The notes under the pieces: generated by a model
What the model was told of the DNA's origin: nothing
The model's input: the letters and a program-made list of their open reading frames with translations, nothing else
Database searches by the model: none
In this document: positions 43,784 through 49,857 of the stretch, piece after piece
Position numbering within the stretch: the first letter of the stretch is position 1
Layout: every line of letters starts with the position of its first letter
Translations under genes and position numbers: made by a program
Assembly: GCA_014905635.1 (NCBI GenBank)
Contig: JABVCE010000028.1
Span: 62,001 to 126,000, forward strand
Source: Scenedesmus sp. PABB004
Taxonomy: Eukaryota
Length of the DNA: 64,000 bases
Direction: 5' to 3'

Positions 43784-46310
43784 ATGCAGGACCCCGAGTT
43801 CAGCGACCCCAGCTCGGAGGAGGACTTTCCGGGCGGGCCCACGCTCGTGGAGTTCTGGAGCCTCGAGGTGCCCCCGAAGACGACCGTCGTGGCCCGGATC
43901 GCGGACCACCCCGCCCTGTGAGCGCGCTCGCGCGCGGACGCACGGCGCCGCGGCGCGCACAGGCGGCGCCGGATGCGCGTAGGGCGCCTGGACGGCGGCC
44001 CGGCGGGCCCCCTCAGCGCTGGGCGAAGCGCGCTGCGGCGTGGGCCCCCGCGGCCGCGGCGGCGGCGGCAGCAGCGGCAGCGCCCGGCGGCTCGCCCGCG
44101 CCGGCGCGGCGGGGGCCCGCCGGGGGACCGGCGGCGCCCACGGCGCCCAGATCGTGGCGTTTGTCGTGCTGGCAGCCGCCGCTACGCGCGCGATGCAGCG
44201 GCGCTCCGGCGCGCCCCCGCAGCCGCGTGGCCGGCGCTGCGTCGCCGCGCGCCGCGCCGCGCCCGCCCACGCGCCGCGCCGCGCCGCGCCGCGCCGGCCG
44301 CAGCGTGGAGGTGGTGCACGTCACGGGCGCGGCGCTGGGCGAGCGCGCGCCGGGCGGGGCGCGGCACGTGCTGAAGATCATTCCCCACGACCTCGACGGC
44401 CGCGCGCGGCCCGAGGTCGCGCTCGGCACGCTCGAGGCGGGGCGCACCGACCAGTTCAGCCTCGACTTTGGCATGAGCGCGACGACGAGCTTCCGGCACA
44501 CCGGCCCGAGCAGCGTGTGGCTCAGCGGCTACCTCACGCGCAGCTACGGCGACGCGTACGGCAGCGACGACGCCGACGACGCCGACTACGAGAGCGAGGA
44601 GGACGAGGAGGAGGAGGAGGGCGAGAGCGAGAGCGACGACGGCGAGCCGCCCGCGGCGATCCCGCTGCACGCGGCGGACGGCCGCGCCGGCGCAAAGGTG
44701 CGGCGCGCGGCGGCGGGCGGCGGCGGGCGGCGCGGCGCGGCGCGGCGCGGCGCTGATTGTCTGTCGCGCGCTGCCGCCGCGCAGGGCGGCAGGGCGGCAG
44801 CAGCGGCGGCCGCGCAGGCGCAGCGGGGCGGCAGCAGCAGCGGCGGCGAGAGCGACGAGGGCGAGAGCAGCAGCGGTGAGGAGGACGAGAGCGAGGACCA
44901 GCAGGGTGAGCGCGGCGGCGGCGGCGGCGGCGCCAGGGCGGCGGGGGCAGCGGGGGCGCCGCGGCGGGCGGGGCCGCTTGCTGCGTGCGAGCTGTGCGCG
45001 TCTGAGCGTGCGTGAGCGTGTGCGTGTGCGTGAGCGCGGGCGCACGAGCGTGTGCACGCCGGCCCTGCGCGCGGCGGCAGCGCGGCACGGGCGCGGCGGC
45101 GCGGACGCACTGACGCCGCCGGGCACGCGTGCCGCGCCGCGCCGCGCCGCCGCAAGGCGACGAGTTTGACCGCCGGCTGGGCGCCAAGTCGTTTGGCGGC
45201 GGCAGCAGCGGGTCGGAGGAGGAGGGGGGCAGCGAGTCGTCGGACGACCCGCTGGACATTGGCAGCGACGACGACGTGGCGGGCGTGGAGTACGAGGACG
45301 CGCCGGGTGTGTGGCGGCGCGGGGGCCTGGCTGGCCGGCCGCGCGAGCGCGTGTGCGGGTCTGCGCGCGTCTGTGCGGGTCTGTGCGGGTCTGCGCGGGT
45401 CTGTGCGGGTCTGTGCGCGTGCAGGGTGGCGTGGCGCGTGCTCTGTCGGAGCGGGCGGCGGGGCGGGCGGGCCCGCACGCTGCACCGCCGTGACGCCGCC
45501 TGCCGCCCGCTGCCGCGCGCTGCCGCCGGCCAGACGGCACGGGGCGCCTGATGGACATGGAGGCTGACGAGGACGAGGACGAGGGTGCGGCGGGCTGGAG
45601 CGCGGGCGGACGGGGGGGGGGCAGGCGGGAGCGTGGGCGGGAGCGCGGCGCCGCAGCGCACGGCGGTGTGCCTCACGCCCGCCGCTCGCTGCGCGTGCCA
45701 CAGACGAGGAGGACGAGGAGGACGAGGAGGACGAGGAGGACGAGGAGGAGGAGCCCGCGCCCAAGGTGGGCGCGCTGCGGCGGGGGCAGCAGCGCGCCGC
45801 GGGCATGCGCCACCCCGCCGCAGCCGCCGCCGCTGCCCCGCGCGCCGCTGACCCCGGCCCGCCGCCGCGCCGCGCAGCCCGCAGCCGGCAGCAAGCGCGC
45901 GTCGCAGCCGCTGACGCCGCAGCCGCAGCTGGCCAAGCGCCAGAAGGGCCAGGACGGCGCGCCCAAGGCGCCGCAGAGCGCGCCCGCCAAGGGCCCGCAG
46001 GCCAAGGCCGCAGGTGCGTGTGTGGGCGCGCGCCGCCCGCCGCGGCCCCGGCCGTCGCCGGCAGGCGCTGACGCGCACCCCCCACCCCTCCCCCCGTTGC
46101 CGCCCGCGCGCAGGCGCGGCCAGCGGCGAGGAGGCGGTGTTTGTGGGCGAGCTCGTGGCGGCGCTGCGCGAGGCGGGTGGGTCGCTCAGCTTGAACCACC
46201 TCAGCGCCAAGGTCAAGAAGCCCGCGGGCGTGGCGGGCAAGTACAAGGCCTTCCTGGCGGGCCACTCGGACACGTTCAAGCTCGACGGCGACAACATCAC
46301 ACTCGCGTGA
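43784..46310 (+). CDS. Nucleoplasmin-like (HD2/FKBP-type NPL) histone-chaperone protein with acidic tracts and a small C-terminal domain
   Basis: EFWSLEVPP..VHVTGAALG..VALGTL..DQFSLDF..SFRHTGPSSVWLSGY followed by D/E tracts. C-terminus FVGELVAALREAGGSLSLNHLSAKVKKP..YKAFLAGHSDTFKLDGDNITLA. Confidence 0.8.
45352..45420. repeat. Intronic 10-bp tandem repeat (GTGCGGGTCT-like), about 6 copies
   Basis: Read directly. Confidence 0.85.
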
Positions 46311-46744
46311 CGCGCGCGGCGCGGCGGGCGGGCCTAGGCAGCGCGGGCGGTGCGTGGGGCAGCTAGTGCGGCGGGGCGGGGCGGGGCGGACCGGGCGCCG
46401 CGGCGGCCGCGGCGGCCGCGCGCGTGCCGGGGCGGGCGCAAGGGGGCGGGCGCGGGGGGTGCGCGCAGCTGCGCGCAGCCGGCGGGCGGCGCCGCGCGAT
46501 CGCGCCGGTGTTGGGAGCGGGGTCGGGTCGACCTGAACCGCTCCCCATTGTGACGGCGCGGGCCGCAGCAGGAGCGTGCATTCCGCACAGCTGGCGCCTC
46601 AGAGCCGCCGCCGTCGCCGCCAATCGCAGCCGCGCACGCGAGCGAGCCCGCGCCGCCGCCGCTGCTGCTGCCGCCGCTGCTGCTGCTGCCGTGCCCGCCC
46701 TCGACGTCACAGAAACGAGCCCGCGGGGCGGTCTGTGTGCCAGC

Positions 46745-46882
46745 ATGTTCGGCTCCAGCAAGCCGTCGCCCAAGAAGGCCTACAAGGAGCTGCGCAGCAA
46801 TCTGCTGCTCTTCGGCACCATCTGCCTCGCCACGCGGCTGGCGCCCTACGTGCTGCACCTGGGGCAGAAGGTGACCAAGTGA
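46745..46882 (+). CDS. TOM6: Mitochondrial import receptor subunit TOM6 (plant type, 45 aa)
   Basis: MFGSSKPSPKKAYKELRSNLLLFGTICLATRLAPYVLHLGQKVTK matches the recalled plant TOM6 pattern MF..KP.K..A.K.LR....LFG......R.APYVL. Confidence 0.8.
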   Translation: MFGSSKPSPKKAYKELRSNLLLFGTICLATRLAPYVLHLGQKVTK

Positions 46883-46913
46883 GGGACCTCCCGCAGGAGC
46901 CGGGGGCGCGGAC

Positions 46914-47861
46914 ATGGCGGAGGCGGGCCGGGCGGCGGCCGACGTCGATCTCCCGGCCCGCAAGAAGGCGAAGAAGGCCGGCCCCGGCGGCAAGGCCGGC
47001 GCGCCGGAGGGCCTGGAGGTCAACCCCGACGACTACGTGCGCGTGGTGCCGGTGCGCAAGCCGGGCGGCGACGACGACGGCAGCGGCGCCGTGCTGCTCT
47101 CGCGCTCCGATCGCGCGCCGGGGCTGGCGCTCAGCGAGGACCGGCTCACCGTGACGGGGCACAAGGGCTTCCGCAGCGTGCGCGCGACGCACGGCGCGCA
47201 CGAGGGCACGTACTACTGCGAGGCGACGGTCGTCGGCCTCGGCCCGACCGGGCACGCGCGGCTCGGCTGGTCCACGCGCGCCGCGGAGCTCAACGCGCCC
47301 GTCGGCTACGACGCCCACGGCTTTGCGTACCGCGACCTCGAGGGCAGTGCCGTGTCGCGCGGCGTGCGCGCGCCGTACGGCGCGCCGTTTGGCGAGGGCG
47401 ACGTCGTGGGGCTGTTCATGCACCTCCCACCCGGCGGCGCGCGGCGCGAGCCCTCGGCCGCGCCGCTCGTGCGCTACAAGGGCGAGCTGTACGCGCTCGA
47501 CGACGCGCCCGCCGCGCCGCCGGAGCCGCTGCGCGGCAGCGTGGTGGGCTTCAGCCTCAACGGCGCGTGGCAGGGCCCCGCGTTCACCGACGTGCCGCAG
47601 GGCACCTACTACCCGACCGCCTCGCTCTTCACGCGCCCCGAGCAGGAGGCCGGCGCGGTGGTGCGGCTCAACTTTGGGCCCACCTTTGCGCACGCGCCGC
47701 CGGACGTGCCCGGCTGCCCGCCCGCGCAGCCGGTGAGCGCGCTGCCGGCGGCCGCCGCGGCGGCGGCGGCCGCGGCCGAGGCGGAGCTGGTCGCGCCCGC
47801 GGCGGCGGGCGCGGGCGTGGACGGCGCGGCTGTGGCGGCGCCAGCGCAGGCCGAGGCGTGA
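46914..47861 (+). CDS. ASH2L: ASH2L/TRAUCO-like SPRY-domain subunit of the COMPASS H3K4 methyltransferase complex, intronless
   Basis: VLLSRSDRAPGLALSEDRLTVTGHKGFRSVRATHGAHEGTYYCE..GHARLGWS..LNAPVGYDAHGFAYRDLEGS..GDVVG..FSLNGAWQGPAF..YYPTASLF..VRLNFGPTF. Confidence 0.9.
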   Translation: MAEAGRAAADVDLPARKKAKKAGPGGKAGAPEGLEVNPDDYVRVVPVRKPGGDDDGSGAVLLSRSDRAPGLALSEDRLTVTGHKGFRSVRATHGAHEGTYYCEATVVGLGPTGHARLGWSTRAAELNAPVGYDAHGFAYRDLEGSAVSRGVRAPYGAPFGEGDVVGLFMHLPPGGARREPSAAPLVRYKGELYALDDAPAAPPEPLRGSVVGFSLNGAWQGPAFTDVPQGTYYPTASLFTRPEQEAGAVVRLNFGPTFAHAPPDVPGCPPAQPVSALPAAAAAAAAAAEAELVAPAAAGAGVDGAAVAAPAQAEA

Positions 47862-48127
47862 CGGGGGCCGCGCCGCACGCGGTGGGGACGTTGGTGTGTG
47901 AAAGCGCGCCGCGCGCCGTGCTGCGCTGTGCGTGACGTCGTTTGCGGTTTAACGCGCGTCCCGCGCGCCGCCGCCGCTGCGAGGGCCCCGAATCGGCGCG
48001 CGCCGGACTGCGTCCCCACTGCGCAGAGCCGCAACCAGGCACACGCGGCGCAGGCGCACGCGCCGCACAGCAGCGCGCGCCGGCGGCCGCCGCCCTCGCC
48101 CGCCCAGGCGCCCGCCCACGCCTCGCG

Positions 48128-49857
48128 ATGGCGCAGAGCGGCGACCGCGCGGAGCAGTTCTCGATCGAGTATGCCAGGCGCGAACGGGGCGCGTTCGGGG
48201 CAGCGCCGCGGGGCGAGCGTCGCGCACAACAGCGGGCGGCGCGCGGCGCGGGGCAGCCACGCGGCCCTCCCGGGCGCCTGGAACGGCGCCCCCGCTTGCC
48301 CAGGCGCGCGCCCGCCGCGCCACCGCCGCCGCCGCACGCGCCGCCGCCGCGCAGGTCGGGCCGCGCCGCGTGCCGCGCGGACGAGAACACCTGCCTGGCC
48401 GGCGGCGACCGCGTCATCGCCAAGGGTGGGGGCCACCTGGCAGCCGCGCTGCCGCCGCCGCGGCCGCCGCTCGCGCGCCGAGCGCGCTGCCGCCGCCGCG
48501 GGCGCCTGCACGCAGGCGAGCTGCGGCTCGGCGCCGCGAACGTCTGCTCGCGGTCGGGCAACGTCGGTTCCCCGCGCTACTTCCACTGGTGCGCACAGCG
48601 CCGACCGCGGCCGGGCGCGCGGGCCGTCCCGCCGCGGGCGGCGCCGCCGACCGCCGCCGCGGCCCGCCCGCGCAGGCGCTGCGTGTCGCCGGCGCAGCTG
48701 GCGGCGATCAACGCGCAGGGCGGCGAGGGCGCGCTGGTCGGCCTGGAGGCGCTGGACCCGGCCGACCGCCAGCGCGTGGTCGCGGTGCTGCGCGCGGCTC
48801 CCGTGGCCCCCCAGGCGGTGCGCGCCGCGGGGGCGGTCGGCCGCGCCGGGGTGGGCGGCGCGCGCGGGGCGGTGCAGATCTGCACCTCTAGAGCAGGCCG
48901 GCCCCCGTGGACGCCCGCGCGCGCCGCCGCCTGCCGTCGCAGCAGGCCGCCGCGGGGCGGCTCGCGCCGGGCGCGCCCGCGCCGCGCCCGGCGCAGGCAC
49001 CGGCGCCCATCGACGGCCAGGCGCTGATGCAGGCCACGGCCGCGGCGTTGGGCCTGCCCGGCGGCACGGCCGCGCTGCTGGCGCAGGCGCAGGCGTGGGC
49101 CGAGGAGCAGCTGCGCGCCGCGGCCATCGCGGCCGGGCAGGCGGTGCCGCCGGCGGGCCCCGCGCGCGACGCGAGCGTGGCCTCCCTGGCGCACCGCTAC
49201 GTCACCGCCTGCCTCACCCGGTTTGTTCAGTCCGCGCCGGGCCAGGCATTCATCGCCGCGCAGCGCACCGCGCAGCAGGCGGCGCTCGCGCAGCAGCAGC
49301 AGGCCGTGGCGCGCGCGCAGCAGCAGCAGGCCGCGGCGCGCGCGCAGCAGCAGGAGGCGGAGGCGGCGGCGCGCGCGCAGCAGCGGGCCGCGCAGCAGCA
49401 GGCCGCGCAGGAGCGGGCGGCGCGCGCGCAGCAGGAGGCGGCGGCCGCCGCCACCGCCGCGGGGCCCGGCCGCCGCCAGCGGCGCATGAAGGCCGCCGCG
49501 CCGGGCTTTGTGTCGGGCGTCGAGCTCGAGCGCGCGCTGGCGGTGCACGGCTCGGGTGCGCAGCGTCAGGGCGCCGGGGCGCCGCGCCGCGCCGCGCCGC
49601 GCGGCTGTCTGAGCTGCCTCGCGCCGCTCCTCGCATGACTGCGCGCGCGCTCAGACGAGGAGGACGAGCCGCGCTCCAAGCGCGGCCGCGGCGACTCTGC
49701 CGCGTCCGACGACTCTGACTGGCAGGCGACCGAGGCAGACCTGCAGCGCCGCGACCAGCGCGCGCGCGGCGGCGGCGGCAGCGGCGGCGCTGCCGCAGCG
49801 ACTGACGGGCGCTCGCCGGCGGCGCGGGAGCCGCCCGCAGGCGCCGAGGTGCCGCGC

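Follow-up and report, generated by a model that had tools for sequence, protein, structure and literature searches.

Can a mitochondrial import subunit and a chromatin factor be made from one and the same nuclear mRNA? This question is raised by a locus in the window, i.e. the whole 64 000-nt stretch of Scenedesmus sp. PABB004 DNA analysed here, in which two ORFs follow each other at a distance of only 31 nt. Its features are:

46311..46744, plus strand: 434-nt gap between the apparent stop of the upstream gene and ORF1 (sequence read directly, ATG list)
46745..46882, plus strand: ORF1, TOM6-type, 45 aa, stop codon TGA (read from the sequence)
46883..46913, plus strand: inter-ORF spacer of 31 nt, ATG-free, no Rfam match, sequence unconserved
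46914..47861, plus strand: ORF2, ASH2L/Bre2/TRAUCO-type SPRY protein, 315 aa, intronless here
47862..48127, plus strand: 266-nt gap from ASH2L to the next ATG, without TGTAA

A sequence-only reading had described two complete, intronless ORFs on the same strand with a 31-nt spacer and a start-to-start offset of 169 nt (frame +1); we re-read the coordinates and all of them agree. The G/C content of the window is 79%, and the plus-strand ATGs at positions 45500-48300 are those at 45551, 45557, 45805, 46745, 46914, 47418, 48128 and 48171. The upstream gene apparently ends at 46310 and the next ATG downstream is that at 48128 (both read by eye). The 434-nt gap must contain the 3′ end of the upstream gene, the presumed promoter site of the pair and an ATG-free 5′ leader, while the 266-nt gap would be the 3′ UTR of a shared transcript. 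An Rfam search of positions 46200-48300 gave no matches at E ≤ 0.1, and local folding of the spacer (raw energies, no shuffle control) revealed no special structure; a scan for bacterial promoters and terminators found nothing, but its bacterial models are irrelevant to an alga. Past the spacer, a stable hairpin is predicted at about 46923-46961, some 9 nt behind the ASH2L AUG. Its 60-nt window has the lowest energy among the windows folded (-34.9 kcal/mol, a raw value without shuffle control), and the hairpin could aid initiation at this AUG.

Identity of the two proteins

Both ORFs are genuine genes, as had been proposed, ORF1 by its codon G/C content and its homologues and ORF2 by its matches to ASH2; the names TOM6 and ASH2L were also right, judged by profiles, PDB chains and named homologues. 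The G/C content of ORF1 is 0.98 at third codon positions compared to 0.48 at positions 1 and 2, as expected for a coding sequence. A direct protein search returned five homologues with 65-78% identity, and homologues reach 79% identity. A profile from these first five led to 38 representatives, and the family profile was then composed of 26 sequences: the window protein, four of the first five homologues and 21 of the 38 representatives that looked full-length. This profile retrieved 80 proteins, among them land-plant entries called ‘TOM6 homolog’ (E about 1e-13 to 1e-16), with one of which ORF1 shares 45% identity over 33 aa. It also matches PDB chain 9etm_I, named TOM5 (E 1.2e-5), from what we take to be a Drosophila complex. 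The Pfam family Tom5 gives weak matches in 14 of the 26 profile members, with ORF1 itself below the curated cut-off, and the AF2 model of ORF1 consists of one helix (residues 9-44, pLDDT 88). By homology, ORF1 is thus a small TOM subunit, with TOM6 as its plant name and a profile match to opisthokont TOM5, and it presumably belongs to the TOM complex of the outer membrane.

With land-plant TOM6 and opisthokont Tom5 the algal protein shares its length, the Met-Phe start, a basic N-terminal half and a single hydrophobic helix with an R-x-x-P-Y motif at its end. It differs from land-plant TOM6 in having no acidic C-terminal tail, and from both in being encoded ahead of ASH2L. The double match to TOM6 and TOM5 agrees with the confusion known to surround these names: yeast Tom5 resembles plant Tom6, a similarity whose significance Fukasawa 2017 (PMC5455965) was unable to demonstrate; the match between the algal and land-plant TOM6 profile and the TOM5 chain (E 1.2e-5) bridges the homology left non-significant there. 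An earlier survey reports a failure to detect TOM6/Tom5 in Chlorella (PMC3095331); a chlorophycean TOM6/Tom5 gene is now located.

ORF2 matches ASH2 chains in the PDB with E 8.5e-36, while RanBP10, the next SPRY family, reaches 1.4e-12; it contains a Pfam SPRY domain. Among 8000 candidates scored, 51 homologues were found at E ≤ 1e-20, many of them named Set1/Ash2 subunit ASH2, and the closest named species among these candidates are Flechtneria rotunda and Tetradesmus obliquus. The matches span the SPRY region (about residues 56-269), and the C-terminus is Ala-rich. By these matches ORF2 is ASH2L/Bre2, nearer to ASH2 than to other SPRY proteins. Since its basic N-terminal patch, which may serve as an NLS, aligns with homologues, we assign the ASH2L start to 46914; the sole other ATG within ORF2 is that at 47418.

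Conservation of the pair in Chlorophyceae

A look for TOM6 just upstream of ASH2L in other chlorophytes had been suggested as a check. We scanned metagenome contigs with a 43-sequence ASH2L alignment, kept the best 80 of 145 confirmed stretches and searched all six frames of these loci with the ORF1 profile. Among these best 80, TOM6 lies just upstream and on the same strand in L001, L002, L003, L034, L041, L049, L050 and L057 (44-81 bits). In an ML tree computed by a quick method from 107 rows (26 of the database proteins and 81 peptides derived from the loci, window included), the 8 linked loci and the window form one clade with L004, L035 and L036 (SH-aLRT 97). The named members of this clade, Tetradesmus, Flechtneria, Monoraphidium, Chlamydomonas incerta, Haematococcus and Chlamydomonas sp. 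UWO 241, are Chlorophyceae, and within it the tree joins L001 to C. incerta (100), L003 to Monoraphidium (95) and L002/L050 to the UWO 241 group (90). The clade thus holds 11 of the best 80 ASH2L loci, and the pair is present in 8/8 of those with upstream DNA; L004, L035 and L036 begin within the ASH2L gene, are therefore uninformative and were left out of this count. The check was positive at every informative chlorophycean locus.

In the 69 other loci the ORF1 profile found nothing upstream of ASH2L (best score 9.6 bits), a search that a diverged or intron-split TOM6 could escape; 52 of the 69 extend >500 nt upstream of the first ASH2L match, and many are near-identical copies. Loci free of TOM6 include L059, which lies beside Trebouxia in the tree, and L051 and L058, which lie near trebouxiophytes. 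The linked loci represent seven taxa plus the window (L002 and L050 are from the same taxon), both Chlamydomonadales- and Sphaeropleales-like. Their ORF1 proteins are pairwise 32-89% identical, and as 27 of the 28 pairs are at or below 64%, the lineages are old. Across the linked relatives, the ORF1 genes differ by 0.42/0.34/0.52 per codon position, i.e. they evolve like a gene, and of 648 codon pairs for the same residue, 250 show synonymous differences. The proposed conservation of the 45-aa ORF was borne out by these differences and by homologues of 45-48 aa upstream of ASH2L. Probably the linkage has a single origin in, or close to, the common ancestor of Chlorophyceae.

Source contigs of database proteins hint at about six more linked cases: 7 of 72 contigs with a TOM protein are identical in size to one of 45 contigs with an ASH2L protein (0.62 expected), although one of the seven coincidences joins different sources and may be chance. 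No relatives of ASH2L were found in prokaryote genome contigs or viral contigs. Six TOM6 matches in viral contigs, all of them short (12-15 profile positions, 11.5-15.5 bits) and lacking ASH2L in the vicinity, were rejected as spurious.

Expression of the two ORFs

In all eight taxa (the window and seven others) ORF1 is intronless and encodes 45-48 aa. Taking the first in-frame ATG past the ORF1 stop as the ORF2 start in the relatives, the spacers measure 31, 21, 21, 103, 17, 49, 21 and 234 nt, with frames of 1, 0, 0, 1, 2, 1, 0 and 0 in the same order. All three stop codons occur at the end of ORF1, and the spacers do not align with each other. An order that is kept while frame and spacer vary argues against a fusion, stop read-through and a structured internal entry site (IRES), and by analogy it is the pattern of published bicistrons.

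A TOM6-ASH2L fusion protein, made by splicing or read-through, had already been judged unlikely. The claim that the sole GT..AG options are 18-26 nt long does not hold, since there are also an out-of-frame option of 47 nt (46850-46896) and many longer ones. The window has donor-like sites at 46871 and 46879, some of the longer options would yield in-frame fusions, and in three loci the 21-nt spacer is in frame and stop-free. However, nearly all in-frame acceptors lie inside the conserved ASH2L coding sequence, and most are poor and lack a pyrimidine tract, while the only good acceptor (46896) gives no in-frame join. Frames and stop codons also differ among relatives, and the product would carry a nuclear SPRY domain at the C-terminus of a membrane helix. 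We thus agree with the earlier judgement and regard a fusion as very improbable.

The three in-frame, stop-free 21-nt spacers (L001:3911-3931, L002:216-236 and L049:2242-2262) come from three distant taxa and follow three different ORF1 stop codons. Ancestral length, selection or chance may lie behind this recurrence. In L057, the 234-nt spacer (1233-1466) carries an ATG immediately behind the ORF1 stop; a donor-like GT follows six bases later, and acceptor-like sites lie at 1429 and 1451. It probably holds an intron, and the spliced spacer may measure 43 nt or zero; depending on the acceptor, ASH2L would follow without a spacer, or a 13-codon mini-ORF would end one base before the ASH2L AUG.

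The explanation we favour, with a probability of roughly 0.7, is a single bicistronic mRNA of the known green-algal kind from which ASH2L would be translated by leaky scanning, a mechanism that we transfer from reporter work at other loci (PMC11892635). A gap of 17-31 nt seems too small for a 3′ end plus a promoter, which favours a single transcript; this transcript and the translation of ORF2 from it are what we infer. From a promoter upstream of 46745, one capped mRNA would contain both ORFs and end after ASH2L. Most scanning ribosomes would initiate at the first AUG, yielding the small TOM subunit of the outer membrane, while a minority would pass it, meet no AUG in 166 nt and start at 46914 to make ASH2L. 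TOM6 would thereby act as a protein-coding uORF that keeps ASH2L output low, and a fairly good ORF1 context would suit an abundant import subunit placed ahead of a scarcer chromatin factor. With an ORF1 of 138 nt and a spacer of 31 nt, the locus fits the published class in size. Published bicistrons have ORF1 medians of 357 and 291 nt, an ORF2 of about 1.1 kb and inter-ORF medians of 183 and 40 nt, compared to 3,415 and 2,518 nt between monocistronic neighbours, and at 32 of 35 published C. reinhardtii loci ribosome reads are higher on ORF1 (PMC11892635).

The start contexts are less telling than had been thought. In the window, ORF1 (AGC-ATG-T) has A at -3 and T at +4, whereas ORF2 (GAC-ATG-G) has G at both positions. 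The T, read earlier as a weak ORF1 context, is present but not diagnostic: it belongs to the codon for Phe-2, and over the eight loci ORF1 has a purine at -3 in 8/8 and T at +4 in 7/8, compared to a purine at -3 in 7/8 and G at +4 in 4/8 for ORF2. With this -3 base the ORF1 context cannot clearly be called weak, which speaks against the favoured reading, as does the limited number of ORF2 starts with G at +4. A Met-Phe start is also seen in 15 of 16 land-plant homologues, a set that omits four further named rows which are longer, partial or oddly named. In the same way, the window does lack ATGs between the two starts, but at its ATG rate this has P = 0.5 for 166 nt and is not diagnostic either. 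Pooled over the eight loci we count 8 ATGs between the starts (11.3 expected, P 0.21, not significant), and without L057 only 3 (9.5 expected, P 0.015); in genomic sequence L002 has 2 and L057 has 5. Internal Met codons are absent from five of the eight linked ORF1s but number 1-3 in all 16 land-plant homologues (related sequences, not independent ones), which hints mildly at selection against AUG but is confounded by phylogeny.

In Chlorophyceae the main poly(A) signal is TGTAA. Its absence from the spacer, correctly seen before, is uninformative: with only 7 occurrences in 64 kb on both strands, and none after ASH2L, a lack of TGTAA in 31 nt says nothing. This alga, with its 79% G/C, may use other poly(A) signals. 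TGTGA follows both the upstream gene (46549) and ASH2L (47897), but it is not enriched in the window overall (41 seen, 62.7 expected).

The main rival to leaky scanning on one mRNA is a second start site inside TOM6, so that ASH2L would mainly come from a shorter mRNA and the TOM6 mRNA would run into or through ASH2L as 3′ UTR. Such overlapping, partially polycistronic units have precedents, as at least 87 C. reinhardtii loci show both mono- and polycistronic reads and partially polycistronic loci are as common there as exclusive ones (Gallaher 2021, PMC7896298). They would agree with the good -3 base of ORF1 in 8/8 loci and with the compactness of the genome around the pair (neighbours at 434 and 266 nt), and a monocistronic ASH2L mRNA would explain why the pair is absent by name from the C. 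reinhardtii and C. zofingiensis lists. On the other hand, a promoter would have to persist inside a constrained 138-nt ORF in lineages with mostly 32-64% identity between their ORF1 proteins, and at published exclusive loci H3K4me3 marks the upstream gene only (PMC7896298). On balance we consider this arrangement rather unlikely.

Less weight still falls on reinitiation, in which ASH2L would be translated from the one mRNA mainly after termination of TOM6, aided by the shortness of the spacer. This idea would fit the 17-31 nt measured between the ORFs in five of eight taxa, three of which, though distant, have exactly 21 nt, as would a short ORF1 with a good -3 base and the ATG immediately after the stop in L057; but spacers of 49 and 103 nt occur too, and reinitiation works best after uORFs of few codons (PMC11892635). 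Reporters built on two further algal loci and on a synthetic bicistron showed an inverse relation between the ORFs, as leaky scanning would predict (PMC11892635, PMC11291117). We therefore see reinitiation as the lesser and quite improbable alternative.

A last question is whether the pairing has a meaning of its own. Our analysis found no support for a functional coupling of mitochondrial import and H3K4 methylation, and bicistronic partners are described as mostly functionally unrelated (Duenas 2025, PMC11892635). One can imagine a regulatory linkage in which capture of ribosomes at the TOM6 start codon sets the ASH2L dose, scanning stringency or mitochondrial biogenesis shifts H3K4-methylation capacity, and the 21-nt spacer is under selection. 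We doubt this, but if true, one mRNA would directly link mitochondrion and chromatin throughout Chlorophyceae. Any functional link between the TOM6 and ASH2L proteins themselves would be speculation.

Published bicistrons and neighbouring genes

By name, TOM6-ASH2L does not occur in the searchable supplements of the two Iso-Seq-based studies of C. reinhardtii and C. zofingiensis, Gallaher 2021 and Duenas 2025. The same supplements have no entries for TOM5, TOM6, ASH2, TRAUCO or SPRY, nor for SET1 and B30.2 where these are covered. Among the 35 C. reinhardtii rows displayed in PMC11892635 (36 stated), none has an ORF1 of 132-150 nt. In the full and partial lists of Gallaher 2021 (PMC7896298), an ORF1 size of 123-156 nt leaves only Cz12g04095/Cz12g04080 (144 and 1203 nt) as a candidate; it is unlikely to be the published TOM6-ASH2L, being listed without domain annotation where ASH2L should show SPRY. 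Six further pairs from these sources, Cre02.g091845/091850, Cre03.g158595/158600, Cre16.g802252/662200, Cre01.g800042/013200, Cre03.g155500/155501 and Cz09g26140/26130, turned out to be other genes. As C. reinhardtii and C. zofingiensis belong to the clade expected to carry the pair, its absence by name counts against the bicistronic reading. A missed 45-aa ORF would explain it: the screen described by Gallaher 2021 required two annotated genes or three UTR introns (PMC7896298), and an unannotated 45-codon ORF would thus escape it.

The arrangement itself resembles green-algal bicistrons with leaky scanning (PMC7896298, PMC11892635), above all TOM22_SDHAF3, in which a short conserved ORF1 likewise encodes a small TOM-complex protein. 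A longer ORF2, a short spacer, a variable frame and colinearity across algal orders are also common to them, as may be a scarcity of AUGs before ORF2. Differences concern the pair as such, the size of ORF1 (138 nt, near the low end of published sizes), the combination of mitochondrial and nuclear partners and the range: TOM22_SDHAF3 also spans Trebouxiophyceae, whereas TOM6-ASH2L is seen here in Chlorophyceae only, from genomic sequence. CDC26_TTM3 (PMC11892635) is similar in that a small complex subunit forms a conserved uORF before an unrelated larger ORF, but it reaches land plants and its effects on NMD and translation were tested, while our comparison of TOM6-ASH2L covers loci from metagenome contigs. 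Taken together, the genomic comparison points to a real, class-wide conserved pair and a probable new bicistron of an already known arrangement. It extends, by a class-wide candidate, a catalogue described by its authors as a minimum estimate, and it shows how bicistrons get missed when a 45-codon housekeeping gene sits in what would be annotated as a 5′ UTR. A practical consequence is that insertions or promoter edits made at ASH2L in algae may affect TOM6 as well, and vice versa.

The window's flanking genes are not kept beside the pair in the relatives, where one distant match only was found, and Pfam gave no firm name for pieces of them and nothing on the downstream pieces tried. The upstream gene (about 44013-46310), presumably nucleoplasmin-like, contains long acidic tracts, and its C-terminus gives a weak winged-helix match (E 0.0099); the gene from 48128 onward would, we assume, resemble a PARP-type zinc finger. 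Upstream of TOM6, two chlamydomonadalean-like loci, L001 (2471-2704) and L050 (143-376), have in common a gene in divergent orientation (59% over 78 aa). Elsewhere in the tree, a non-chlorophycean clade carries homologous ORFs of 326-414 aa at L017, L018, L020, L021 and L042 (2499-3743), L026 and L027 (2483-3565) and L029 (2573-3553), which end -4, 30 and 258 nt from the first in-frame ATG of ASH2L, its putative start.
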